64,000 nt of DNA from Candidatus Latescibacterota bacterium. GTDB taxonomy: Bacteria; Latescibacterota; UBA2968; GCA-2709665. The stretch is from contig CAXXJS010000010.1 of the NCBI GenBank assembly GCA_963662665.2, forward strand, positions 192,001 to 256,000, read 5' to 3'. Of the stretch, positions 20,312 to 48,789 are shown in pieces (position 1 is the stretch's first letter; every line of letters starts with the position of its first letter). Position numbers and translations under genes: made by a program. The notes under the pieces are model-generated. The model searched no databases. It was not told the DNA's origin and saw nothing but the letters and a program-made list of their open reading frames with translations.

Positions 20312-21638
20312 ATGCTCAAGGCAGGCGCATCAAAAGTCAACATTACACCATTTCTGGGCGGGCCGATGGCCGGTTACGGGGCACGCGACCGCGGCAGTGA
20401 GAGCATCCACGATGAACTCTATGCCAAAGCCCTTGTGCTGGACGACGGCAAAACCGCGGTCGCGATGATTACTACCGACCTCATCGGCATTGATCGGGAT
20501 TTTTCGAAAAACGTCCGTGCGCTTGTCGAAGAAAGGGTCGGATTGCCTTCGGACCGGGTTTGGCTGTGCGGGTCTCACACCCATTTCGGGCCGTCCGTGA
20601 GTCCGGGCCGGACGAACGAAAGTAATGTCGATCCCATTGACCGGGCCTATGCGGACGTCCTGGCGGCAAAGCTGTCCACCGCCGTACAGTTGGCCCATAG
20701 CCGGTTGCGTCCGGCCCGCCTGGGTGCCGGCGCAACCCGCGCCGAAGGCATCAGCTACAACCGACGGCTCATCCGCCACGACGGCAAGGTGGAAATGAGC
20801 CTCACGCTGCCGCCGCCTTACGAGGGCTTGAAGTTCGGCCCGATGGATCCCGAGGTGGGCCTCTTGAAAATAGATGGGGCAGACGACGGCGACATCATCG
20901 CCTCGCTCGTCAACTTTGCCTGCCATCCCGTCTCCAGCACCGACCGCATGTATGAATTCACCGCCGACTACCCTGGTTACGCCATGGACCTGATCGAGTC
21001 CGTGGAAGGCGGCATCTGCCTGTTCGCCCTCGGCTGCGCGGGCAATATAGTTCCGATACAACGGCAGGGCCGGTCGAAACGCCAGGTGGGCCTGTCGCTG
21101 GGCGGATCCGCGCTCAATGCACTCCAGTGGATTCGGACGAGCGGCCAGGTCCGCATACGCGCCGCCAGAAAGTCGATCGAATTGCCACTGCGCAGGTTTC
21201 CGGCAACCACGCGAATGGAGCAGCAGATTACAGACGCGGAAGCCGCGCTGGACAGTGCCGTGGAGAGGAAGGCGCCATCACGAGAAATAACCGAAAGCCG
21301 GGAAGCCCTGGGCCTGGCCAGAAGTCTGCCCGGCTGGGCCGAACGCTTCGGACGACGCAAGACCCGAACCACGGAAATCCAGGTGTTCTGGCTCGGCGAT
21401 TTCCCGATCATCGGGCTCCCGGGGGAAGTCTTTGTCGAACTCGGACTCCGGATCAAGAAGGCCGTGGACGCCTTCCCGGTTCTGGTGGTAAGTCTCAGCA
21501 ACGACAGCGCGGGGGTACATACCGATCCGCCGCGCATACCGGCAGGGAGGGTATGAATCCAACGTGTCGGCCTTCGCCCCCGGTTGCGGCGAACACCTCG
21601 TCAGAGAAGCCCTGGACCTGGCCGAATCGATACGTTAA
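20312..21638 (+). pseudogene. Neutral/alkaline ceramidase-like protein with +1 frameshift near the 3' end
   Basis: NITP, HDELYAKAL, SHTHFGP, NFACHP, ADYPG, PGEVF; the GYIP...GGYE tail continues in another frame after G5 at 21511-21515. Confidence 0.75.
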
Positions 21639-21937: not shown

Positions 21938-23242
21938 ATGTCGATACTTACGTGTCTGTTATTCTTGGTTATGTTCCTTTACTTCGCCAGAACCCGTGCG
22001 GCCGCCGCCGAGGTTACGCTTGCGGCCGGCACGGCCAGGGCCGACATCACACCCGATCCCGCGATGGTGAACTGGGTGGATGGCAGACCCTATGACGGCG
22101 TTCTGGATCGCCTCACCCTGCGCGGACTCGTTCTTTCGGACGGATCCACAGAATTCGCTTTGATTTGCTGGGATCTCATCGACGCGACGGAGGAATGCGT
22201 CGTCGACGTACGGCGGGCGGTTCGCGGCGCAACGGGCATCCCGGAAACGCACATCCTCGTGGCCGCCTCGCACACCCACTCGTCGCCCCGTTCCCCATAT
22301 GCCGCAACCACGTTTCCCGGACGCAGGAGCGAACGGCTGAGAGCCATACTGGACGATCCCGTCTTCCAGGCCTGGAGCCGGCGCCTCCCCGAACAATGCA
22401 CGGATGTCCTGAAACGTGCGCAGGAACGCCGGCAGACCGTCACATTGAACATCGGCCGTGCGAATGTCTCAGAATGGCTATTCAACCGGCGGCCACTCGA
22501 TCCGAACGGCAACGCGGTTACGATGTTTAAACCGGAAGATCCGCGTACGTTGCCGGGCGGCCTGCGTTTCGGTTCGCTGGATCCGACCCTTACGGTCCTG
22601 ACCCTCACAGGCGCGGACAACACGAATGTTGCGACTGTTTACAGCGCGCCCTGCCACCCCGTCTCCATCTATCCCTATCACCGCGGGGTTTCGGCAGATT
22701 GGCCGGGACCGGCCAGTGAACGGATTTCGGAAGTCCTGGGCGGCGAAACCTTCTTTCTGCAGGGCTGCTCGGGAGACATCGTCCCCGCCAGCCGAGGTGA
22801 AGGAGCGCGCAAGGAAATGGCCCGTTTCTTCGCGGAACGGGCCATTGCGGCGGCACGGCGGTCCCACCGCCTGCCCTCGTCGCCTCTGACGGTAGCAACA
22901 GGGATTGTCGGCCTGCCGCTCGTACCCGAAGCGCGAAGGGTGGCCGGCGCCGACGTCCGACCGGTCGAAATCCAGGCGGCTGTTTGCGGGCCGTTCGGCC
23001 TCGCCGTACTGCCCGGCGAACCCCTCAACGGGCTCGCGCGGGAGATTCAGGCGCGCTCACCCCTCCCGCACACGCTTGTTATCGGCTACGCCAATGGCCG
23101 CGGGGTGAGTTACGTTGGTCTTCCCGGAGAAAAAGCCAGAGGCGGATACGAAGCAGGCGCGGGCCAGGGTACCGAAGAAGCCGGCGACTTTATGATTCAG
23201 ACCGCCCTTCGGCTTCTGGGGGAACAGGTCGAAGACATCTAA
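21938..23242 (+). CDS. Neutral/alkaline ceramidase-like hydrolase, probably exported
   Basis: Signal-like N-terminus; DITP, SHTHSSP, CHP, SADWPG, QGCSGD, PGEP, GGYE. Confidence 0.8.
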   Translation: MSILTCLLFLVMFLYFARTRAAAAEVTLAAGTARADITPDPAMVNWVDGRPYDGVLDRLTLRGLVLSDGSTEFALICWDLIDATEECVVDVRRAVRGATGIPETHILVAASHTHSSPRSPYAATTFPGRRSERLRAILDDPVFQAWSRRLPEQCTDVLKRAQERRQTVTLNIGRANVSEWLFNRRPLDPNGNAVTMFKPEDPRTLPGGLRFGSLDPTLTVLTLTGADNTNVATVYSAPCHPVSIYPYHRGVSADWPGPASERISEVLGGETFFLQGCSGDIVPASRGEGARKEMARFFAERAIAAARRSHRLPSSPLTVATGIVGLPLVPEARRVAGADVRPVEIQAAVCGPFGLAVLPGEPLNGLAREIQARSPLPHTLVIGYANGRGVSYVGLPGEKARGGYEAGAGQGTEEAGDFMIQTALRLLGEQVEDI

Positions 23243-23736: not shown

Positions 23737-25284
23737 TCACTCCTCCTTTTCACGCCGAGACCGATCGGGAAACAGAAGAGAACCGAGAACCATAAGGCCC
23801 ATCGCCAGAACGGTTGCGCCGAGACCGATATGTGCGCCGGTGAAGGCGCCCAGACCCAGGGCCCTTTTCACGGGCGTCAGGCCGGTAACGGCAGCGGCTC
23901 CGGCAACAAGGGCGAGGTACGCACCGGCGGTGCTGGCGCGCTTCCAGTAGAGCCCGGTGAGGAGTAAGGCGAATGCGCCGGTGAAATAGATGGCGCCGCT
24001 GACCAGCATATAATCCCACAGGTCCTGGCCAAGCTCGTACCACAGTCCCCAGACGAGCAGAAAGGCGCCGATGAGAAATATGAAGATCCGGGACAGGGTC
24101 AGGCGTGCACGGGTGGAGAGGGTGTCGCCGGTGGCGGGTGCGACTACGTCGTGGGTGAGTACCGAGGACCAGCACAGCAGATAGCTGTCGTGCGTGGACA
24201 TGAACGCGGCAAGCAGTCCCGCGCCGATAAGGCCGATGAGACCGGCAGGAAGAATCTGGCTGAGGAAAACGGGCATGGCCAGAAGGGTGAGATCCGCATT
24301 CCCCGTGGGTACGCCTGCGGCTGAAAAAAAGACCGCACGGGTCACCTCGTTCTGGTAGAGGTAGACAAAGGCGCAGATGCCCAGAAACTGCGGCACCATG
24401 AATCGAACGAGGAAGCCGATGGCAGACCAGGCGTAGAGTTTTTTCACCACGGCCGGGCTTTCGGCGGCGCAAGCCCTCATAACAGCGGTCTGCCAGACCG
24501 CGCATGATACAATCCCGGCGGTAAAGATCATCCAGACGACGTACGAGGGTCCGAACCCGCCGCCTTCATGCAGCGGATTGAAGCCGGCCTCCCCGTGAAG
24601 GGTCGCTACCGTGTCGACGATTACCGACCATCCGAGCCTGTCTACGGCGATACCGCAGGTGAGAATGACACCCACAGACAACACGATAAACTGGATATAA
24701 TCGGTGATGACAACCGAAACCATGCCCCCGAGAATGGTATAACTCAGAACAAGCAGGAGCATTACGGTCATAATAATGGCAACGGACGTGGGATTCGTGA
24801 TACCGGTGAGACCGGCGACAAAGATCGCGCCCGCTTTCAGGAACAGACCCATATTGAGGATGCCCGAAAGGGCGAGCAGAAGGCCGCCGAAGATGCGGAC
24901 GCCCCGGCTGAACCGCTTTTCGTAGAATTCCGGAATCGTCATCACGCCCAGTTCGCGCAGCGGAACCACGATAAATCCGGTGAGGCCGATGATCAGGGTG
25001 ACAATGCCTGCGATAAGGCCGATGTGAAAGGCGGCGAATCCACCCGTGAAGCCCTTCTGGGCGGAATACATGACGGTCACGAGCCCGAGTTCGCTGCCGA
25101 TCATGGTTGCAACGGCGAGGTAGGGCTTGAGCGAACGGCCGGCGACAATATAGTCGCTCATGTTGCGGATGTACCTGTTGGCATAGAGGCCGATCGCGAC
25201 GGTGCCGAGCATGTACAGACCAACAATTGCCCAATCAACGGCGCCGAAGTTCGAACTGATCCGCGAAACGAGATCGGACGTCAT
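23737..25284 (-). CDS. Sodium:solute symporter family protein
   Basis: DYIVAGRSL, TIPEFYEKRF, GGMVSVVITDYIQF, LAAFMST; many TM segments. Confidence 0.93.
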   Translation of the reverse strand: MTSDLVSRISSNFGAVDWAIVGLYMLGTVAIGLYANRYIRNMSDYIVAGRSLKPYLAVATMIGSELGLVTVMYSAQKGFTGGFAAFHIGLIAGIVTLIIGLTGFIVVPLRELGVMTIPEFYEKRFSRGVRIFGGLLLALSGILNMGLFLKAGAIFVAGLTGITNPTSVAIIMTVMLLLVLSYTILGGMVSVVITDYIQFIVLSVGVILTCGIAVDRLGWSVIVDTVATLHGEAGFNPLHEGGGFGPSYVVWMIFTAGIVSCAVWQTAVMRACAAESPAVVKKLYAWSAIGFLVRFMVPQFLGICAFVYLYQNEVTRAVFFSAAGVPTGNADLTLLAMPVFLSQILPAGLIGLIGAGLLAAFMSTHDSYLLCWSSVLTHDVVAPATGDTLSTRARLTLSRIFIFLIGAFLLVWGLWYELGQDLWDYMLVSGAIYFTGAFALLLTGLYWKRASTAGAYLALVAGAAAVTGLTPVKRALGLGAFTGAHIGLGATVLAMGLMVLGSLLFPDRSRREKEE

Positions 25285-25340: not shown

Positions 25341-25958
25341 TTAGGGCCAGGTGGGGCGTTCCATCGAAAAGGATTCGGTGACGCATGCGTAGTCCAGGTA
25401 CCCGAGTCGCCCGACCGGTCTCAAAGCTACCGTGTCGACGTGGCCATCCTTAATAGCCCGGTCGGCAATGTGGATGCCGACAACCTGACCGAAGACAACC
25501 GTGTTCGGATCGTCCGGATTGTCCGTTGGCAGGTCCACGGTGCGGGTATGGATACATTCCAGATGCACCGGGCTTTCCGCCACACGCGGGGGCTTCACAA
25601 GCAATGAAGGCGCCTGGGTGACGCCCGCGTATTCGAATTCGTTGACGTTCGCTGGTGCGGGCACGGCGGTCGCGTTCATCTGTGTTCGAAGTTCCCACGT
25701 GGCAAGGTTTACCACGAATTCGCCGGTTTCCTGCGCGTTCTTTATGGAATCCTTTAATCCGCCGTGGGTGTGTGTGGTTGTGGCGGCAAACATGACCTGC
25801 GGCGGGGTATAGGCCACGGCGTTGAAAAACGAGTATGGGGCCAGGTTGATCGTTCCCTGCGCGTCTATCGACGAAATCCATCCTATCGGTCTTGGTACAA
25901 CGATGGCGTTGAAGGGATCGCGGCGCAGCCCGTGGCCTTCCGACGTCCTGTAGAACAT
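25341..25958 (-). CDS. Flavin reductase family protein
   Basis: PRPIGWISS, NLAPYSFFN, GEFVVN, GRLGY. Confidence 0.93.
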   Translation of the reverse strand: MFYRTSEGHGLRRDPFNAIVVPRPIGWISSIDAQGTINLAPYSFFNAVAYTPPQVMFAATTTHTHGGLKDSIKNAQETGEFVVNLATWELRTQMNATAVPAPANVNEFEYAGVTQAPSLLVKPPRVAESPVHLECIHTRTVDLPTDNPDDPNTVVFGQVVGIHIADRAIKDGHVDTVALRPVGRLGYLDYACVTESFSMERPTWP

Positions 25959-26008: not shown

Positions 26009-27010
26009 CTATTTCCACTTGAAAACAACACCCAGCGCGGCGCTCGGATCGTCGGCGAGCATCGTGTAGATTTCCTGGCACTGTTCCGGATCCGCGACGT
26101 GGGTGATGAGGTCTTCGACCGGCAATCTGCCCTCTCCCATCAGGCGCATCACCAGCCTGCGGTCCCGTTCTTTCGCCCACCGGTAGTAAATGTGGTCGGC
26201 CTCCGGCGTCTTGGGCTGGTGGGCGCCCAGGATGCTGACTTCCCTCAGGTGTACGTCGGCCAGGAAATCCATGTCGACGGTGCCGCGCGGCGAACCCAGC
26301 GCGACCACACGGCCTGCCGTGCATGCGATTCGGACGGCGGTGGGATATACCGCGGGTTTTCCGGTCGCTTCTATAACGACGTTGGCGCCGTCTTCCACGC
26401 AGTGTCGCCCGACGGCGTCCCGGACGTCGTCCACGGCGCCGGGGTTAATGCAGACGTCAATTCCGCGGCTTTGCGCCTTGCCCAGACGAAAGTCGTCCAG
26501 GTCCACCGCGATTACCGGCACGGCGCCGGAGAGTCCCGCGAGCGTCGACGCGAGTTGGCCGACAATCCCAAGGCCGATGACGACGACAACCTCGCCCAAT
26601 TCGATGCGCGCCACACGGATCCCGTGGATGGCGATAGCGCCCATGACCATGAAGGCGGCGGCTTCGGACGACACGGAATCAGGGACTATCTGGTGGAAGG
26701 ACCTGGGGCCGGAGAGAACGCAGTGGCTGGCGTGGTTTCCCTGCCCCGCGACACGGTCTCCCGGCCGAATGCCCTCAACGTCCTTGCCGACTTCCAGCAC
26801 GGTGCCGACGTTGCAATAGCCGGTGGGGCGGGGAAACCGTACCGGGTTTCCGGGTTCGCCGCCTCGGGTCCACCCGTGGATCTCGGTACCCACGCTGACT
26901 GCTGTGTACTCGTTTTCGAGAAGGATACCGTCATCCGGTACCGGACCCGTTTCGAACGACGCGACTTCCATCCGGCGAATATCCGGAACGAGGAGACGTC
27001 TGGCTTTCAT
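26009..27010 (-). CDS. MDR family (zinc-binding type) dehydrogenase
   Basis: SVGTE, GYCNVG, GLGIVGQL, IEATG. Confidence 0.88.
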   Translation of the reverse strand: MKARRLLVPDIRRMEVASFETGPVPDDGILLENEYTAVSVGTEIHGWTRGGEPGNPVRFPRPTGYCNVGTVLEVGKDVEGIRPGDRVAGQGNHASHCVLSGPRSFHQIVPDSVSSEAAAFMVMGAIAIHGIRVARIELGEVVVVIGLGIVGQLASTLAGLSGAVPVIAVDLDDFRLGKAQSRGIDVCINPGAVDDVRDAVGRHCVEDGANVVIEATGKPAVYPTAVRIACTAGRVVALGSPRGTVDMDFLADVHLREVSILGAHQPKTPEADHIYYRWAKERDRRLVMRLMGEGRLPVEDLITHVADPEQCQEIYTMLADDPSAALGVVFKWK

Positions 27011-27099
27011 TTTCAAGTCCTTTCGAGTCGGTCGAAGGGGGCACAGGGAGCGGTTCGTTGAGATGGTCGCGGAATCCCTCGGGAAGTCCGGGATGGCCG

Positions 27100-28137
27100 C
27101 TACGCCTGCCGACAGTCCAGGGTGTCCCGGAAAAGTCGAAGGAAGTTGCCTCCCCACACCTTTCGGATTTCGTTTTCCGTGAGGCCGCGAGAAAGCATGG
27201 CACGGGTGAGGCGCACAAGCCTTGAGACGTCTCCGAAAACCGGTGTAACCGAACCCATGCCGTCGTAGTCGGAGCCGACGCCAACGTGGTCGATGCCGAC
27301 CAGGTCCGCCACGTGACAGATATGGTCGACCATTCGGTCCGCGGAAGAATTTTCAGGATCGATAAAGCCAGGGAGAAAGGCAATGCCCATCACCCCGCCG
27401 GCGGCGGCCAGCGCCCTGAGCTGATCGTCGGTCAGGCAGCGCCAGTGGTTGCATTCGGAGAAAACCGCGGTGTGGGTCATTGTCACCGGGAGTGAAGACT
27501 GTTCCAGCACCTGGTAGAAGGCTTTGTCGTTAATGTGAGCCAGGTCCGTGATGACGCCCAACCGGTTGCTTTCCTGGAGAACAGCTTTGCCGAAGTCCGT
27601 CAGCCCGCCGGCATTCCTGCGTTCACGTTCACGGTCGCCAGACGTGCATGGGCCGAATGGACTCCTGCTGCCCTGAAGGTAGGCCGGGTCGTCGCCGCCT
27701 TCGCCGTGGGTGATCCCGATGCAGCGCACACCCAGACGGTAGTAGAGGCCCAATACATCCATCTCGCCTTCCAGCCAACGCCCGGCGCCTTCTATTGTAA
27801 GCAGGATGCCGATCTTGCCGGCTTCTCTCGCCCGTTCAACGTCCCGTGACGAGAACACCAGCATCAGGTCCGCGGGATACCGCTCCACCGAGGCCAGGGT
27901 CTGCTCGAGGGTAACGCGGACGTTTGCCGTGGGGCCGTTGCCGACCACGAAGAAGCCGGCGTCGAACCCGCCTTCCTTCATCCGGGGAATGTCCATGTGA
28001 TACGCGAGGTCCCGTTTCTTCAGGTCCATCGGGCGATCCCCCCGGTGGACGTGCTCTACGGGCGTGTCGTTGTGGCCGTCGACGATAAGGCAGCGATCGT
28101 GGACCGCCTGCGCTTCTTCAAGAGTGATATCCGGCAT
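27100..28137 (-). CDS. Membrane dipeptidase (peptidase M19) family
   Basis: DGHND, IEG, DLAH, GSDYDG, GGNFLR. Confidence 0.92.
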   Translation of the reverse strand: MPDITLEEAQAVHDRCLIVDGHNDTPVEHVHRGDRPMDLKKRDLAYHMDIPRMKEGGFDAGFFVVGNGPTANVRVTLEQTLASVERYPADLMLVFSSRDVERAREAGKIGILLTIEGAGRWLEGEMDVLGLYYRLGVRCIGITHGEGGDDPAYLQGSRSPFGPCTSGDRERERRNAGGLTDFGKAVLQESNRLGVITDLAHINDKAFYQVLEQSSLPVTMTHTAVFSECNHWRCLTDDQLRALAAAGGVMGIAFLPGFIDPENSSADRMVDHICHVADLVGIDHVGVGSDYDGMGSVTPVFGDVSRLVRLTRAMLSRGLTENEIRKVWGGNFLRLFRDTLDCRQA

Positions 28138-28203: not shown

Positions 28204-29526
28204 CTAAGGTGGATCGACGGGTACTTTCTGGTTCTTGCGGACCAGCGGATCGTATGTAAATCCGTCAGACCGTTTCTCGAACTCCGCACGGGCCTTTTTC
28301 AGGTTCTCCGGGCCCCGGCAGAGGTCAACCGCGCTCCCCGCGAAGACCTTGGCGGTCTGCTGGATCGCGCGCTCGGCGAAAGGAAGGGCGGCCTGCGCGG
28401 CCATGTCCCGATGATGGCCGGGCGTTCCCTTTGCATAACAGACCATCTGAAAGCGTCCCAGAGGGGCCAGCCAGGAAACGTTGTCCTCGTCCGTCGATCC
28501 CCGGCCCTGCGAGCCGCTGCCCTTCGCGATCTTTGTATTGAACCCCTTTTTATAGCCGAGTGATTCAGCGTGCTTCCGGTCGGCTTCCGTGGGTTCGGGC
28601 GGTCCGAAGCGTTTCAGGTTCTTTCGGACAATCTCGCACATCGCCTTGTTGGGCAGACGCGGGTACACGGCGGTGATGCGCGACCACTTCATCTTCGTGT
28701 CCGTGGCCCTGGCGGCGCCCCGGGCGCAGGCGGTGAGTCGTTCACGCACTTCGTCGACCTGCTTCCGGTCCTTTCCCCGCACGAAGTACCAGATTTTGGC
28801 ATAGGCCGGCACCACGTTGGGGGCGTCGCCTCCGTTGCGAATGACGGAATGGATCCTGACGTTTTCGGGGACATGCTCCCGAAGATAGTTGGCTGCAATA
28901 TCCGTAAGCATCACCCCGTCCAGGGCGCTACGGCCCCGGTGAGCCGACGCGCCGTGGGCGGTGCGGCCGAAGAATTCGTAAACGACGGAGTCCAGCGACG
29001 ATCCGCCGAAATTGTTGACGCCCGAAGAATTTCCCGGATGCCAGGCGAGGCAGGCGTCCAGGTCCCGAAAAGCGCCGTCGCGGGCCATATACACTTTGCC
29101 CGCCAGCGTTTCCTCCGCCGGACAGCCGTAGTAGACGATTTTTCCCGATGTTCCGGTTGACTCGAGAATTTTCGCAGCGGCGACCGCACCCACGGCCGGG
29201 GCAACGCCCAGCAGGTTGTGGCCTCAGCCGTGACCCCATTGGCCTTCTTCGGGACCGCAGTTGGGCAGCGCGTCGTATTCCCCCAACATCCCCACCGCCG
29301 GATCCCCGACGCCCCGGGTTGCGCGAAATGCCGTTGGGATTTTCTTGAACGGAAATTCGACGTCGAAGTCCCTCGAGGCCAGGTAGTCCGCGATGGCCTT
29401 AGAGGACCTGACTTCACGGAAGGGCCGTTCCGCAAAGGCATGTACCTGCGTGGAAAGGTCCCTGGCGCGTTTCGACTCGGCAGCCACGGCGCGATTGACC
29501 AGGCTCTTTTTTTCTTTTGCGGTCAT
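28204..29526 (-). CDS. M20 family amidohydrolase (AbgB-like), candidate selenoprotein with UGA at codon 101
   Basis: ORFs 29224-29526 and 28204-29193 are in frame and joined by EYDALP...GHG-TGA-GHNLLG; then GCPAEE, WHP, STD motifs; SECIS-like hairpin follows. Confidence 0.85.
29182..29223 (-). promoter_or_regulatory. Putative bacterial SECIS element
   Basis: GCU-GGGC[GUU]GCCC-C-GGC hairpin, loop 18 nt after the UGA. Confidence 0.65.
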
Positions 29527-29634: not shown

Positions 29635-29831
29635 TAGCCTTGATTCGTAATTCTTCGGGGAAGTAAAACCGAATATATGCAAGAAGATAAAGACGATTTG
29701 ACTTCGGATTACCAGGATACACCAGGTCACTGGACGTGATCTGAAAAAACGTCCTCTTTGACGACCGTTACGCCCCGTTTCAGGGGTTTTCGTCGCGTCG
29801 CCGAGTTGCTGTTTTTTTAGAATTGAGGCTA
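29635..29831 (+). mobile_element. MITE family A, copy 1 (intron-free, 197 bp)
   Basis: TIRs TAGCCTTGATTCGTAA / TTAGAATTGAGGCTA; homologous to 55127-55324 and 42469-43420. Confidence 0.85.
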
Positions 29832-30917
29832 ACGTCCAGCGACGGCATCAGCCACCGCATCGCCCACTTCGTACGTCCTGGCGGCGCCTCCCAGATCGAC
29901 CGGGTGGTTCTTCGGATTGTCCAGCGTTCGATCGACGGCGCGGTCAATCGTCTCGGAAGCCGCGACGGCTTCAGGATCGTTGTGACGCGCTCCCAGCCAG
30001 GACAGCATCATCCCGGCGGAAACGATCTGGGCCATGGGATTGGCGATGCCCTTCCCGGCTATGTCGGGGGCGGTACCGTGGGAAGGCTGGAAGACGCCGT
30101 AGCGGTCGCCTACGTCGGCCGAAGGCGCCATACCCATCCCGCCGATGGTTGCGGCGGCCAGGTCCGATATGATATCCCCGAACATATTTTCCGCAACGAC
30201 AACGTCGTACCAGGCCGGGTTGCGCAGCTGATACACGGTGAATGCATCCACGTAGGCATAATCCCGTTCGATTTCGGGATACGATTCGGCGATCTCGTCG
30301 TAGATCTGCCGGAAAAAAGCCATACTCTTCAGAATGTTGGCTTTGTCAACGGAGGTGACGCGGCTCCTGCCGTCTGCGGGCGCCCCCTTCCGTTGTTTCG
30401 CGATTTCAAAGGCGTACCGGACGATCCGTTCGGTACCGGCGCGGGTGATGACCATATTGTCCACTGCAAGGCTGTCGCCCAGGCGGACCCCGGCGCCGCG
30501 AGAGGCGTAGAGTCCTTCGGTATTCTCACGCAGGATGACGTAGTCGAGCGGCGGATTCCCATCGAGAAGCGGAGGCACACCGCGAAATTTCCTGATGGGT
30601 CTGATCCCGGCGTAAAGGTCGAGTTCGAAGCGCAGTGTCAGTTGCGGGGCGATTTCCGTGCCGTCGGGAAACCGGATATCGGGGTCGCCCGCGGAACCGA
30701 AGAGCACGGCGTCGGCCTGCTTGCACGCGTCGAGGGTGGGATCGGGCAGGTCATTACCGGTTTCGGCGTAACACCTTGCGCCTACCTGGTGTTCGGAAAA
30801 GGTGAACCGGAGACCGGGATGCGGCTCCTCGAGCGCCAGGAGGACTTTAAGCGCTTCCCCCACTACTTCCGGGCCGACGCCGTCTCCGGGGAGTACCGCG
30901 ATGTTATACGTTGGCAT
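29829..30917 (-). CDS. Isocitrate/isopropylmalate dehydrogenase family protein
   Basis: LPGDGVGPEV, RENTEG, DKAN, NMFGDIISD, HGTAPDIAGKGIANP. Confidence 0.93.
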   Translation of the reverse strand: MPTYNIAVLPGDGVGPEVVGEALKVLLALEEPHPGLRFTFSEHQVGARCYAETGNDLPDPTLDACKQADAVLFGSAGDPDIRFPDGTEIAPQLTLRFELDLYAGIRPIRKFRGVPPLLDGNPPLDYVILRENTEGLYASRGAGVRLGDSLAVDNMVITRAGTERIVRYAFEIAKQRKGAPADGRSRVTSVDKANILKSMAFFRQIYDEIAESYPEIERDYAYVDAFTVYQLRNPAWYDVVVAENMFGDIISDLAAATIGGMGMAPSADVGDRYGVFQPSHGTAPDIAGKGIANPMAQIVSAGMMLSWLGARHNDPEAVAASETIDRAVDRTLDNPKNHPVDLGGAARTYEVGDAVADAVAGR

Positions 30918-30927
30918 GTACGTCCTT

Positions 30928-32058
30928 TCAAAAGATACGGAATCCGCCCTCGGATCTTACGCCGCGTTCCAGCATGTCCGGCTCGACGTCGAATCCCGCA
31001 CCGGGGGTATCGGGTACGATCAGCCTGCCGTTTCGCGTCTGCCATCCGTCAAGGACGATGCCCGGCATGTTTGCGGGAGCCGCCTCCAGGAGGCTGAAAT
31101 TGGGTATGGATGCGGCGAAGTGGGCGTGTGCGTAACGTTCGATAACACTCCCCCAGCAATGAGGGGCGCACTTCGCACCCCAGGGCTGGATCCGATCCGC
31201 GGTTGCTTTCCACCAGGTCAGACCCTTGAATCGGAAGTCGTGCTGAACAACGTCGATCCACCCCTTTTCGACCATATCGAAGAAGTCGGGCGGTGGCGGC
31301 CCGGATTCGCCGTCGGCCACGAGCGTATCGCACCCGCTTTGTTCGATGGCTTCCTTAAGGGCCTGGTTGAACGCCCGGTCTTCGGGAAACGGTTCTTCGA
31401 GCCAATAGATCTCCGCTCCCCCGCAGCGTTCGAGGATGCCCAGAGCGATGTTGAGCGTGGTACCGTTGTTGGCGTCAATGAGAATTTTTGCATCCGGTCC
31501 CGCTGCTTCCCGAACCGCGTGGATTACCAGAACGTCCCGGTCCGTTCCCTCCCGGACGGGCATCCAGCGCGCGCCGCGACCGATTTTTATTTTGAAATTG
31601 CGATAGCCGTGGCTGTGACCGGTCCGGACCTCTTCGTGAAAGATGCGCCGCGCCTGGTCGTCGTCGGCTCCGAGGTCGTCGATGTAGATGGAGCCGTCAT
31701 AGAGTTCCACTTCGCGGGCGCCGCGCGCGCCCAGAAGTTGATACAGAGGTGTCTCTTCACATCTGGCGGCAAGGTCCCACAGGGGCAGGTCGATGGCCGC
31801 GCCGGCCCCTCTTGAACCGCGGGGAAGCTCAAAGAAGTCCGATGGACGTTTGCCAAGCAGCGTCGCGGCACGCTCCCTGTCAAGCGATGACCAGCCGATA
31901 CCCACGGCGCCGCCGCCGGTGGAAATGCGCACAACCGGGTCGGTGACGGCACGGCCATGCGCGCCGATGCGGGCGTTACATCCGACGTTGCGCGGACGCT
32001 TCCCCCGGAGGACAACCTTTTCGATCTTGACAATGGGGTCGGTAAAAGCACTGGTCAT
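30928..32058 (-). CDS. Mandelate racemase/muconate lactonising enzyme family protein
   Basis: DLPLWDL, KIKIG, DANN, WLEEP, DGE, PHCW. Confidence 0.88.
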   Translation of the reverse strand: MTSAFTDPIVKIEKVVLRGKRPRNVGCNARIGAHGRAVTDPVVRISTGGGAVGIGWSSLDRERAATLLGKRPSDFFELPRGSRGAGAAIDLPLWDLAARCEETPLYQLLGARGAREVELYDGSIYIDDLGADDDQARRIFHEEVRTGHSHGYRNFKIKIGRGARWMPVREGTDRDVLVIHAVREAAGPDAKILIDANNGTTLNIALGILERCGGAEIYWLEEPFPEDRAFNQALKEAIEQSGCDTLVADGESGPPPPDFFDMVEKGWIDVVQHDFRFKGLTWWKATADRIQPWGAKCAPHCWGSVIERYAHAHFAASIPNFSLLEAAPANMPGIVLDGWQTRNGRLIVPDTPGAGFDVEPDMLERGVRSEGGFRIF

Positions 32059-36078: not shown

Positions 36079-38148
36079 TCATACCGAACCCAGGCTCTTC
36101 AGAATCTTCGCGACAATGGCATCCGTATCGTGCACGCCGGACAGCCGTTCGACGATGATTCCCTGCGGATCGACCAGGAAATAGGCCGGTATCCCGCGAA
36201 CGTTGTAGTCAACAACGGGACCGGAACCGGAGACCCCGGAGCGTACGTGTACCCCGTCGATCCCGTGTTCTTCAATGGCCTTGCGCCACGCGGCGTCGCT
36301 CGAATCCAGTGAAAGGTTAACGAAAACCACCGGCAAATCGGTGGTTTTCTTCTTTAATTTCCGGATAGACGGCAGGTTGGCGATGCATGGCCCGCACCAA
36401 CTCGCCCAGAAGTCCAGCAGCACCACCTTGCCTCTGAACTGGCTGAGGGATACCTGCTGCCCTCCCAGATCCGTCAGTGTAAATTCGGGCGCGGGACGGC
36501 CCGGCCGCAGCACCATCGCCTTTTCCAACGCCGCCAGGACCGCCGCGTTGTATTCCGGGTAGGGGTTGGTTGCGCGGAAGTCCCGCCATTTGCGACGGAC
36601 CAGTTCAAAGTTCTCGCCGCCGTACTCGAAACTTCGGATCAATTCCCCGGCCAGGAACCAGTAAAGCACGCGCCCTTTCAATTTCTTCTCGGCCAAGTCA
36701 ATCCTGTGTGGAAGCCTGGGTATGGACCGTTTCCTGATTGCATAGATCGAATCCAGCTTCGCCTGCACCGCCTGTGGCAGACCCAGACCCGCGAGGTCCA
36801 GCTTCTGGGACAGCTTGAGCGGCTGTCGGTTCTCGTACAGGGAGTCCAGATGTGCGACCACTTCCGGCGTCTGGTCCAATTCCGACAGATCCACCATTTC
36901 GGACAGCTTCTGCGTCTTGCGGATCGACTTCAATTGCCCTTCCATGTCCATGCCTTCTTCTACGGGCAGCCGGATAACCAGCGAACCGCCTGTGGTATCG
37001 ATTTCCGGTTTTTTCAGCTTGCTTGAAGTCGTGATCCTGTACGATCTGCCACTCTTTTCGTATAAGTAGTCGAGGCGGGCGTGAGCTGCCTGCGGGACGC
37101 CCAATTTCGGCAAATCGATGATGTCGGACAGTGTGGAACTGCTCCTGTTGTCATACAACGAATCAAGCCTGTCCGCGACCGGTTTCGGCAGATCCGATGC
37201 TCCCAGCCGGATCATTTTTGACAGCTTCGGGTGCCACCCGTACAGTGCATAGAGTGCGTCGAGACCTGCGACGGTCTCCTCCCGAAGAACCAGACTCGAC
37301 AAATCGTATTGATCGCTGAGCCTGTCGGACACGGGCATCCTCATCATTTCCAGGTCCAGCGTCCGGATGAGGTAGATCTTATACGTATCCATGCCGATCG
37401 CCTTCTCGTCCACCAGCGGGACCCGTTTCAGGAAGTCGTGGAATTCAGGCGGGATATCCGGGTTCTCCCGGCCGGTGGCGCGCCGGTAATTTTCCGGGTA
37501 TGAAATCTTCAGAAAGGCATACGTGTAGTTGAAAAAGCGTTTCGCATACTCGACGAATTCCGGCGAGAACGCGTATCTCGTTCGCCGCCTGTCCAGGAAT
37601 TCAAGCTGCTCCGTGCGCCACCCGTCCGCCAGGCGCGAAAAGTCTGCCGCCTTCACTGTCCTGGAGTCCCTGATTTCCTTTTGGAAGTCCTGGAACCGGG
37701 GGTACCATTCGGCAATAAACCGGCTGTTGTCCGCGTTGGTTCCGTTGAACCGGAACGAGGTATAGAGATGTCCGGGGTGGATTTTGATATGCAGGCTGTC
37801 GCCGGGCTCGACAAACAGCACCAGGGGACCGGGCTTGAAGATGGACGACGCGGCCTGCCGCACCCACTTCCACGGGACGCTTCTGCCCTTGTAACTCCCC
37901 CGAACGAGGGACCCTCGGACGACGGGAATCTCGAGGGCGAACCGGTTCCGGCTGTCCAGGCGCACGCGCTGCTCGGATTGTCGTCCCAGCGCCCAGGGCG
38001 AGTCATACTTGAACGTGATCTCTCTCGATGTCGGGTCCCGGACTTCACCTGTGATAACCGCGACCGAAGGCTCGCCGCTTTCCGCGGCAAAAGCAGCGGT
38101 CGACGCGGCAAGCAGGACGAACAGAATCTGACAGATTGCGCTCTTCAT
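36079..38148 (-). CDS. Exported TlpA/redoxin family protein with internal ~31-aa repeats
   Basis: Signal peptide; C-terminal APEFTL..LLDFWASWCGPC..GIPAYFLVD. Confidence 0.85.
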   Translation of the reverse strand: MKSAICQILFVLLAASTAAFAAESGEPSVAVITGEVRDPTSREITFKYDSPWALGRQSEQRVRLDSRNRFALEIPVVRGSLVRGSYKGRSVPWKWVRQAASSIFKPGPLVLFVEPGDSLHIKIHPGHLYTSFRFNGTNADNSRFIAEWYPRFQDFQKEIRDSRTVKAADFSRLADGWRTEQLEFLDRRRTRYAFSPEFVEYAKRFFNYTYAFLKISYPENYRRATGRENPDIPPEFHDFLKRVPLVDEKAIGMDTYKIYLIRTLDLEMMRMPVSDRLSDQYDLSSLVLREETVAGLDALYALYGWHPKLSKMIRLGASDLPKPVADRLDSLYDNRSSSTLSDIIDLPKLGVPQAAHARLDYLYEKSGRSYRITTSSKLKKPEIDTTGGSLVIRLPVEEGMDMEGQLKSIRKTQKLSEMVDLSELDQTPEVVAHLDSLYENRQPLKLSQKLDLAGLGLPQAVQAKLDSIYAIRKRSIPRLPHRIDLAEKKLKGRVLYWFLAGELIRSFEYGGENFELVRRKWRDFRATNPYPEYNAAVLAALEKAMVLRPGRPAPEFTLTDLGGQQVSLSQFRGKVVLLDFWASWCGPCIANLPSIRKLKKKTTDLPVVFVNLSLDSSDAAWRKAIEEHGIDGVHVRSGVSGSGPVVDYNVRGIPAYFLVDPQGIIVERLSGVHDTDAIVAKILKSLGSV

Positions 38149-38446
38149 AAGTCGATCCCCCATTCGGATCTCTTGTCACCCGACGCGCCAAACCCTGAGG
38201 CGACGTTCGCCGGAATTACGACACACAACTCAATCGTTTGCGATAGGCAATACGCCCGGTCGTCGCTGTTGAACCCAACCTGCGGCGTCAATGATAATCG
38301 CACCGCATTCCGCGGATACTTTTCCGTCCTCCCAGACACACAAAAAGATAGCCAATTTGCCGTCCGGAAGCGAACGCAAACGTCCGTCCCGCGACAGAGC
38401 CATTTCCGGCGATTGTCACGGAGACACTGATTGGTACAAACTGGAA

Positions 38447-48447: not shown

Positions 48448-48789
48448 ATGGATATAGAACTCGTCTACTGCGCCATGTGAGGTTACGAAGACGAGGCCGT
48501 CAGTTTGACGCGCCATCTGCTGGAAAAATACAAGACGGGTATCTCGCGATTGACGCTGGTTCCATCGGGCAGGGGAAAATTTGAGATCACGGCTGACGGG
48601 GAGACGGTCTTCTCAAAGCTGAAGGAAGGCCGGTTCCCTGAAGACGTCGAGGTTGAGTCCCGCCTCGCCGTAAAAACAGGAAACAGCGGTTCCGGTTCGG
48701 GATCGTGCTGTCCGGAAGACGAACCTGTCAGGCGCAAAAGCATGGGGTTCCGCTCCCTCGTCGCGATGCTTTTCCGTAGAGCCGGATGA
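48448..48789 (+). CDS. Rdx (SelT/SelW/SelH) family selenoprotein, CxxU
   Basis: AAAGGAG RBS; MDIELVYCAM-TGA-GY...GKFEITADGETVFSKLKEGRFP; hairpin downstream. Confidence 0.9.
48495..48514 (+). promoter_or_regulatory. Putative bacterial SECIS element
   Basis: GGC-CGUCA[GUU]UGACG-C-GCC, loop 22 nt after the UGA at 48478-48480. Confidence 0.7.

Follow-up and report, generated by a model that had tools for sequence, protein, structure and literature searches.

The M20D subfamily of amidohydrolases and peptidases includes HmrA of Staphylococcus aureus (3RAM), which belongs to the Met-X carboxydipeptidases, human PM20D2 (beta-alanyl-lysine/Xaa-Arg dipeptidase; 7YH4 and 8XZC) and CsAga of Corynebacterium striatum (6SLF), an N-alpha-acyl-glutamine aminoacylase. 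The metal ligand set of M20D enzymes, as seen in the structures of ILL2 and SACOL0085, is Cys/His/Glu/His/His, accompanied by a catalytic Glu. In CsAga the cysteine bridges both zinc ions, according to a review passage that does not state the residue number (PMC11511702). The catalogued prokaryotic selenoproteins, in which selenocysteine (Sec, U) is encoded by UGA, are nearly all redox proteins or binders of redox-active or soft metals. Here we analyze a stretch of 64,000 nucleotides from a Candidatus Latescibacterota bacterium (hereafter the window; positions 192,001 to 256,000 of the forward strand of contig CAXXJS010000010.1, GenBank assembly GCA_963662665.2), in which a gene for a putative M20D enzyme has an in-frame TGA at the position of that cysteine and very probably specifies Sec there.

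The gene is a single frame of 440 codons on the minus strand, which runs from an ATG at 29526 to a TAG at 28204-28206 and whose lone interruption is the TGA at codon 101. Around this codon it reads NCGPEEGQWGHG-U-GHNLLGVAP, with WGHG-U-GHNLLG as the core motif. Translation table 11 cuts the frame into two open reading frames (ORFs), one of 100 aa (29224-29526) and one of 329 aa (28204-29193). A preliminary description of this DNA had taken the two ORFs for one frame broken by a single TGA, with a read-through product of 440 aa in which the other motifs of the family are intact, and this is what we found: PAEE lies at residues 136-139, WHP at 162-164 and STD at 344-346. Its expectation that standard pipelines would call a pseudogene was not borne out in the records examined, which show two separate ORFs instead. 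In the protein analyses the read-through product was given a C in place of the U at residue 101.

A six-frame search of 168 Latescibacterota genomes returned 83 matches in 80 genomes at E <= 1e-40. In 55 genomes, including that of the window, the orthologue is 68-100% identical and interrupted by one TGA only, while the remaining 28 matches in the phylum (34-67% identity) have no stop; of 41 close genomes, 37 have the orthologue, again with one TGA each. The TGA occupies the identical column in all 54 distinct Sec-form genes for which DNA was read, and all of them read WGHG-U-GHNLLG. A TGA in 55 of 55 orthologues at or above 68% identity, in the same column of 54 genes, is more than chance would give. 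The only orthologue in the phylum without a stop, that of genome G154 (67% identity), has TGC and reads WGHG-C-GHNLLG.

Outside this set the position is held by Cys. Among 80 loci from a named genome collection, 23 have U, 55 have Cys (TGC or TGT) and two lack the motif; Cys is found in all loci from Kiritimatiellae, Planctomycetota, Lentisphaerae, Armatimonadota, Aminicenantes, Clostridia and Alphaproteobacteria. The Sec-bearing genomes of that collection are labelled mostly Candidatus Latescibacterota, with six labelled Gemmatimonadota/Gemmatimonadetes and four labelled simply 'bacterium', and their contigs are identical to those placed in the phylum of the window. A protein database search that returned 120 relatives gave Cys in all 100 full-length, motif-bearing metagenome homologues (56-77% identity). 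Another 18 of the 120 are short (294-351 aa) and start just past the UGA position, as expected of Sec forms cut by gene callers; two of these short entries are labelled 'peptidase dimerization domain-containing protein' by NCBI. Among the sequences searched, the predicted Sec form is restricted to Latescibacterota.

Sec and Cys appear to have been exchanged repeatedly at this position. In one 90%-identity cluster (P0122, P0123 and P0065), a 451-aa Cys form is grouped with two proteins of 100 aa and 335 aa that are encoded on one and the same contig. The latter two are a Sec form split at the UGA, and the cluster holds a Cys/Sec pair that differs by less than 10%, the result of a very recent switch between Sec and Cys. 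In a FastTree tree (189 rows: 54 Sec, 116 Cys and 19 short, with duplicates and two full-length motif-less proteins dropped), all Sec forms fall within one clade of 108 rows (support 96), where they are intermixed with Cys forms. The tree requires at least four Sec/Cys changes, and two Cys forms are nested in a Sec clade. As it is a quick tree with long-branch warnings, it is used here only to claim that the exchange occurred more than once.

Could the TGA simply be a true stop, in a pseudogene or split gene that yields a 100-residue fragment and, at most, a separately initiated C-terminal protein of 329 residues? Gene callers produce exactly such a split, as the short database entries and the pair of 100 and 335 aa on one contig illustrate. 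Across 54 distinct genes that span 68-100% identity, however, the interruption sits in one column and is invariably TGA, with no TAA or TAG among them. The median ratio of nonsynonymous to synonymous substitution rates (dN/dS, Nei-Gojobori) is 0.116 upstream of the UGA (codons 4-100) and 0.087 downstream of it (codons 102-440), as calculated from 51 of the 54 distinct Sec-form genes (three with indels were left out), of which 380 of 1275 pairs passed the divergence filters. Purifying selection is strong on both sides of the UGA and therefore excludes a decaying pseudogene. Residues 99-103, which form the H-x-C-G-H motif, would be missing from a C-terminal ORF on its own, and the model shows the N-terminal piece as integral to the catalytic domain. 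In addition, synonymous sites are frozen immediately after the TGA, and selA accompanies the Sec form in 54 of 55 genomes (both described below). A true stop is on these grounds highly improbable. Nor is the TGA an assembly artefact: contigs from runs of three studies span the gene and none differs at 29224-29226, two being identical to the window (they may include its source sample) and one having six differences, none of them at the TGA.

The genome of the window (G000) has what is needed to decode UGA as Sec. The genes selA (560 bits) and selB (372 bits) lie side by side on contig C16, where they are adjoined by tRNA-SeC(tca), and selD lies on contig C40 with an in-frame TGA of its own. With selA, selB, selC and selD all found, the earlier suggestion that the organism probably decodes Sec is well supported. 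Across the phylum, selA scores above cut-off in 131 of 168 genomes, among them 54 of the 55 that carry the Sec form. Neither genome of genus g29 yielded a selA match, that is, neither G154 with its Cys form (86% complete) nor G155 (90% complete), a pattern that fits loss of the Sec trait accompanied by replacement of Sec by Cys.

Other candidate selenoprotein genes occur in the same genome. The CxxU selenoprotein gene that the preliminary description placed near 48448 was recovered as an Rdx/SelW-like match on the plus strand of the window (48454-48663; Pfam PF10262, 59 bits), which begins MDIELVYCAMUGYEDE, contains YCAMUG and one TGA, and has the putative selenocysteine insertion sequence (SECIS) CGUCA[GUU]UGACG; a second copy with the same hairpin type lies at G000:C30:24154-24369. 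Further TGA-containing matches to selenoprotein families are located at C7:2664-3401, C8:51901-52389, C21:89441-89722 and C40:300099-301019, and comprise an FdhA-like gene, two AhpC/TSA (Prx-like) genes and selD. Together with the two Rdx genes and the M20D enzyme, these bring the candidate selenoproteins of G000 to at least seven.

Downstream of the UGA the Sec-form genes are constrained at the level of RNA. Over 161 conserved codons of at least four-fold degeneracy in 51 of the 54 distinct Sec-form genes, the mean synonymous entropy is 1.40 bits, and just five of these codons fall below 0.15 bits: codons 107, 109, 111, 113 and 114, which correspond to nucleotides +18 to +42 when the U of the UGA is counted as +1. 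Codons 107 and 109 show zero synonymous variation. In a control set of 27 distinct Cys-form DNAs, codons 107-114 vary both in amino acid and at synonymous sites (1.38 bits at Gly107 and 1.64 bits at Ala114), while codons 102-105 are equally variable in the two sets. RNA-level constraint from +18 to +42 is therefore clear.

Two abutting hairpins can be drawn in this segment. The first (HP1) has its stem start at +18 (window position 29209) and its GUU loop at +22 to +24. A hairpin with a GUU loop 18 nt after the UGA had been described before; the hairpin is confirmed, and the distance holds only if counted from the U, the true spacer between UGA and stem being 14 nt. The second (HP2) keeps its pairing in 99.7% of cells across 46 distinct segments. 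One of its pairs is altered on both sides, from G-C to A-U, in three sequences, with one mismatch, and its closing pair changes from C-G to U-G in 20 of the 46 segments. Taken jointly, HP1 and HP2 pair in 99.8% of cells. These two hairpins were compared, by RNAalifold and two pair-count tests, with a long hairpin that has the UGA in its lower stem and with an outer stem combined with HP1. HP1 is favoured as the site of SelB binding because the G-U of its loop, at +22/+23, matches that of other genes of the same genome: the SECIS-like hairpin of selD (CAGUCC[GGUC]GGACUG), the hairpin of the FdhA-like gene (GGUUGCC[GGUCU]GGCAGCC) and the AGUU loop of the Prx-like gene Prx1 all have a loop G-U at +22/+23. 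In the two Rdx/SelW-like genes a GUU triloop lies at +26 to +28. HP1 is thus most likely the SelB-binding apical hairpin of a SECIS, to which HP2 possibly also belongs.

The same evidence bears on whether the UGA might be read as a standard amino acid, such as Trp, Cys or Gly, through near-cognate decoding or a local change of the code. The identity of the inserted residue is predicted from sequence, and three structure models fit the SECIS, both of which leave some room for such a reading. A global reassignment is contradicted by the use of TGA as the commonest terminator of the genome, in which 1795 of the 3314 stop-to-stop frames with 300 or more codons close with TGA; such a frequent terminator is an ordinary stop elsewhere in the genome. 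Moreover, every homologue without TGA has Cys, the classic signature of Sec/Cys exchange, and the lineage with the Cys form is without a detected selA. The genome also combines the full Sec machinery with at least six other TGA-containing genes of selenoprotein families, at least four of which share the loop G-U distance or the GUU triloop. Insertion of a standard residue has, in our view, only a very slight chance of being correct.

The product belongs to M20D by profile and by fold. It matches NCBIfam TIGR01891 'amidohydrolases' with 189.8 bits (cut-off 153.75) and Pfam M20_dimer with 30.1 bits (cut-off 21). An AlphaFold (AF2) model built on an 18-row alignment (A2), hand-picked from 121 proteins, has a mean predicted local distance difference test score (pLDDT) of 89.9 and a predicted template modelling (TM) score of 0.89. 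The first 100 residues have pLDDT values of 92-98, which indicates that the part upstream of the UGA is integral to the catalytic fold. The top Foldseek matches are all M20D structures with the two-domain M20 fold (catalytic and dimerisation domains), with TM scores on the target of 0.90 for 3RAM (HmrA), 0.86 for PM20D2, 0.76 for 6SLF (CsAga) and 0.71 for 4EWT (SACOL0085), followed by 1XMB (0.69), 3IO1 (0.67) and 1YSJ (0.67); sequence searches agree. The fold is closest to those of HmrA and PM20D2 and not demonstrably that of AbgB.

In the alignments, residue 101 falls on the Cys of GHACGHN (3RAM and 7YH4) and of HACGH (1XMB), and residues 99-103 align with HACGH of 6SLF transitively (via 3RAM, 7YH4 and a paralogue in the same genome). 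C101 (U in the window), H103, E138, E139, H163 and H371 are invariant among the 18 sequences of alignment A2. From the motif alignment and this invariant set we infer that Sec101 is a metal ligand, probably a bridging one. The earlier statement that the Cys at this site is a ligand of the dinuclear metal center in M20D enzymes is upheld by the alignment and by the review sentence on CsAga, though not by a structure of the window protein itself. The Cys-containing M20D paralogue of the same genome (452 aa; G000:C49:60553-61911, corresponding to L018:1441-2799) has the motif AAHACGHNAQ and is 29% identical to the Sec enzyme; its closest matches in the PDB are PM20D2, HmrA and CsAga.

It is also conceivable that Sec is inserted while residue 101 serves as a redox-sensitive or regulatory residue rather than as a metal ligand, which would make the protein a redox-switched hydrolase. 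Most known selenoproteins are redox proteins, as parts of a 2026 review of the prokaryotic selenoproteome have it (PMC13188914), and the ligand function comes from homology only. Against such a role, alignment A2 shows no variation in the H-x-C-G-H motif or in the four other predicted ligands, the fold matches that of M20D structures with bound metal, the cysteine of CsAga bridges both zinc ions in the review passage cited above (PMC11511702), and there is no second conserved Cys beside Sec101 that could form a CxxU or UxxC-type pair. We regard a redox or regulatory role as unlikely.

Our preferred reading, which we hold to be very probable, is that this is a functional selenoprotein gene whose UGA at codon 101 is recoded to Sec by SelA, SelB, tRNA-Sec and SelD to give an M20D product. 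We infer the following mechanism. The UGA would be recoded by the bacterial SelA/SelB/tRNA-Sec/SelD system, directed by a SECIS that lies within the coding sequence and begins 14 nt past the UGA with GGGC[GUU]GCCC, the predicted SelB-binding hairpin, followed by the second conserved hairpin. The product would be a 440-residue dinuclear metallo-amidohydrolase or dipeptidase of the HmrA/PM20D2 type, in which Sec101 replaces the Cys of H-x-C-G-H and, by homology, would coordinate two metals together with His103, Glu139, His163 and His371, with Glu138 as the general base. The enzyme would probably hydrolyse a dipeptide or an N-acyl amino acid within a catabolic gene cluster. As to the specific chemistry, we lean, on balance, towards Sec101 being a selenolate that bridges the two metals of a hydrolytic, non-redox M20D peptidase and that has been kept across an order-level clade of Latescibacterota while being repeatedly swapped with Cys.

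Several results weigh against recoding at this UGA, against HP1 as its signal or against the ligand role of Sec101. The alternative long hairpin, whose lower stem contains the UGA, has 99.6% of cells paired and is the consensus structure of RNAalifold. Covariation is weak, with the pair in HP2 as the sole two-sided change, and each of the three alternative structures has at least 99.6% of cells paired; with covariation so sparse, no choice among the three models is possible. The single-sequence minimum-free-energy fold around the UGA is no better than shuffles (z 0.07), and a search of 29100-29300 against Rfam, with E values up to 10 admitted, gave only three chance-level matches to unrelated families. 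One Sec-form orthologue, L056 (G083:C598), is the only one in which Val108 is changed to Thr, and its HP1 loop is ACA rather than GUU, with the stem of HP1 and HP2 unchanged; either the loop G-U of HP1 is not essential, or that copy is poorly decoded. selA was not found in the Sec-form genome G032 (91% complete, 430 contigs). The catalytic Pfam domain Peptidase_M20 (PF01546) is not reported for the window protein at E 0.001, although many homologues have it as a precomputed match. For the ligand role of the Cys, the sources are a single review sentence on CsAga, the structures of ILL2 and SACOL0085, and alignment. Finally, only four RNA runs are listed, each with a 0.07 share of words, and the one examined gave no usable coverage of the gene, only a 361-nt contig that matches in two short diverged pieces, evidently of another M20 gene.

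The features of the locus are listed in Table 1. The order of the isocitrate/isopropylmalate dehydrogenase (IsoDH), M20D, M19 and alcohol dehydrogenase (ADH) genes is conserved at the loci checked in the family of the window. By tblastn, adjacency of the M20D and ADH genes is found in both families of the order, which makes the zinc-type ADH gene the most widely conserved neighbour, and the IsoDH gene adjoins the M20D gene in the family of the window and in some genomes of the sister family. Neither arrangement was seen beside the Cys forms of other phyla. A cluster for the catabolism of peptides or N-acyl amino acids would fit this gene content, and the neighbours conserved within the order name no specific pathway or substrate.

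Table 1. Features at and around the candidate selenoprotein gene, in window coordinates.
Feature	Position	Strand	Evidence
Sodium:solute symporter (SSF)	23737-25284	-	Profile scan of neighbouring ORFs
Flavin reductase	25341-25958	-	Pfam Flavin_Reduct
Zinc-type alcohol dehydrogenase family gene	26009..27157	-	Pfam PF00107
Peptidase M19 (membrane/renal-type dipeptidase), downstream	27100..28137	-	Pfam PF01244, 269.7 bits
Candidate selenoprotein M20D amidohydrolase CDS, 440 codons + TAG, predicted Sec at codon 101	28204..29526	-	One frame with a single TGA; TIGR01891; M20_dimer; AF2/Foldseek; dN/dS
Hairpin HP2, +29 to +46, CGGCCG(U/C)[(G/A)GGU]GCGGUCG, abuts HP1	29181..29198	-	Codons 111, 113 and 114 near-invariant
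Hairpin HP1, +18 to +28, GGGC[GUU]GCCC	29199..29209	-	Four pairs invariant in 46 distinct segments; codons 107 and 109 frozen
UGA codon 101, predicted to be read as Sec, aligned with Cys of the M20D H-x-C-G-H metal-site motif	29224..29226	-	TGA conservation; Cys in homologues
Isocitrate/isopropylmalate dehydrogenase family (Iso_dh), upstream	29829..30917	-	Pfam PF00180, 306.7 bits
Enolase-superfamily (MR/MLE) gene	30928-32058	-	Profile scan of neighbouring ORFs

Two other ORFs of the window were noted in passing. One, of 434 aa on the plus strand (21938-23242), has no Pfam match at E 1e-5 and adjoins a ceramidase-like gene (20312-21556, PF04734). The other, on the minus strand (36079-38163), encodes a 694-aa protein whose last ~140 residues are Redoxin/AhpC-TSA/thioredoxin-like and whose first ~550 are without a Pfam match.

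Comparison with published selenoprotein lists indicates that this type is missing from the accessible parts of the catalogues. No M20 peptidase or amidohydrolase is among the 119 families and subfamilies, including GenBank-only annotations, in Table 1 of the 2026 review, and its main text contains none of the words amidohydrolase, M20, peptidase and hydrolase (PMC13188914). Nor do these words occur in the main text of the deep-Sep paper, of the 2022 Haft preprint on eight new families and of the BSepDB paper, where supplementary lists (e.g., BSepDB Table S2) may differ. NCBIfam release 20 has no matching selenoprotein-specific model, and full-text literature searches, with supplementary lists and subscription papers outside their scope, found no description of a Sec-containing M20 protein, amidohydrolase or peptidase.

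If our reading is correct, the enzyme would be the first selenoprotein metallopeptidase, in which selenium may have been selected to tune the affinity for, or the choice of, metal, or to shield the bridging ligand from irreversible oxidation. Its SECIS may then be an unusual pair of abutting hairpins, with a GUU triloop and an RGGU tetraloop, rather than a single stem-loop. Sec at a metal-bridging site of a hydrolytic dinuclear enzyme would offer a clean non-redox system for asking why Sec is used over Cys, and naturally occurring enzymes with Sec or Cys that are more than 90% identical would be a ready pair for biochemical comparison. As gene callers split these genes into products of 100 aa and ~330 aa, a conserved enzyme appears to be mis-annotated in at least 55 species representatives, and adding the M20D family to selenoprotein search sets would correct this in an uncultured and poorly known phylum.

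Among described proteins, HmrA is the best match to the window protein both in sequence (E 7e-42; profile 4e-59) and in fold (TM 0.80 on the query and 0.90 on the target). The two share the GH-x-CGHN motif, PAEE, the dimerisation domain and the two-domain M20D architecture; HmrA differs in having Cys instead of Sec and is only ~25% identical, and in the window protein seven residues (CGPEEGQ-W) are inserted ahead of the motif and the C-terminus is longer. Human PM20D2 is second best (E 7e-32; TM 0.86 on the target) and has the same motifs, including the C-terminal GSTD region, but it is eukaryotic and has Cys at the motif. CsAga is likewise an M20D enzyme, with a zinc-bridging Cys in the review passage (PMC11511702) and an HACGH that aligns with residues 99-103, but the relationship is distant (profile E 5.5e-9; ~17% identical over the Foldseek alignment), and the residue is again Cys rather than Sec.

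The preliminary description had called the protein an AbgB-like M20 amidohydrolase. Its assignment to M20D stands, on TIGR01891 and the fold, while a likeness to AbgB is not supported beyond that subfamily level. AbgB (p-aminobenzoyl-glutamate hydrolase subunit B) is of the same M20D superfamily and has the same H-x-C-G-H motif, and homologues of the window protein carry the automatic JGI name 'aminobenzoyl-glutamate utilization protein B'. The PDB entry 'aminobenzoyl-glutamate utilization protein' 3IO1, which stood in for E. coli AbgB, is nevertheless matched only weakly (E 1.3e-5; target TM 0.67) and ranks far behind HmrA and PM20D2, and no abgA or abgT-like gene is among the ten neighbouring ORFs scanned. 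A different link between M20 hydrolases and selenium is provided by YgeY, an M20-family hydrolase that is tied by phylogenetic profile to selenium-dependent molybdenum hydroxylases (PMC2276186); it is not itself a selenoprotein and belongs to another subfamily and another context.

The closest parallels for the proposed role of Sec101 are formate dehydrogenase (Mo/W-Se) and [NiFeSe] hydrogenase (Ni-Se), in which, according to parts of the 2026 review, Sec takes the place of Cys as a direct ligand of the catalytic metal, Cys homologues exist and recoding depends on a bacterial SECIS (PMC13188914), as is proposed for the M20D enzyme. Those are redox enzymes with Mo, W or Ni centers, whereas the M20D enzyme would be hydrolytic, non-redox and dinuclear, with metals of the Zn/Mn/Co type.

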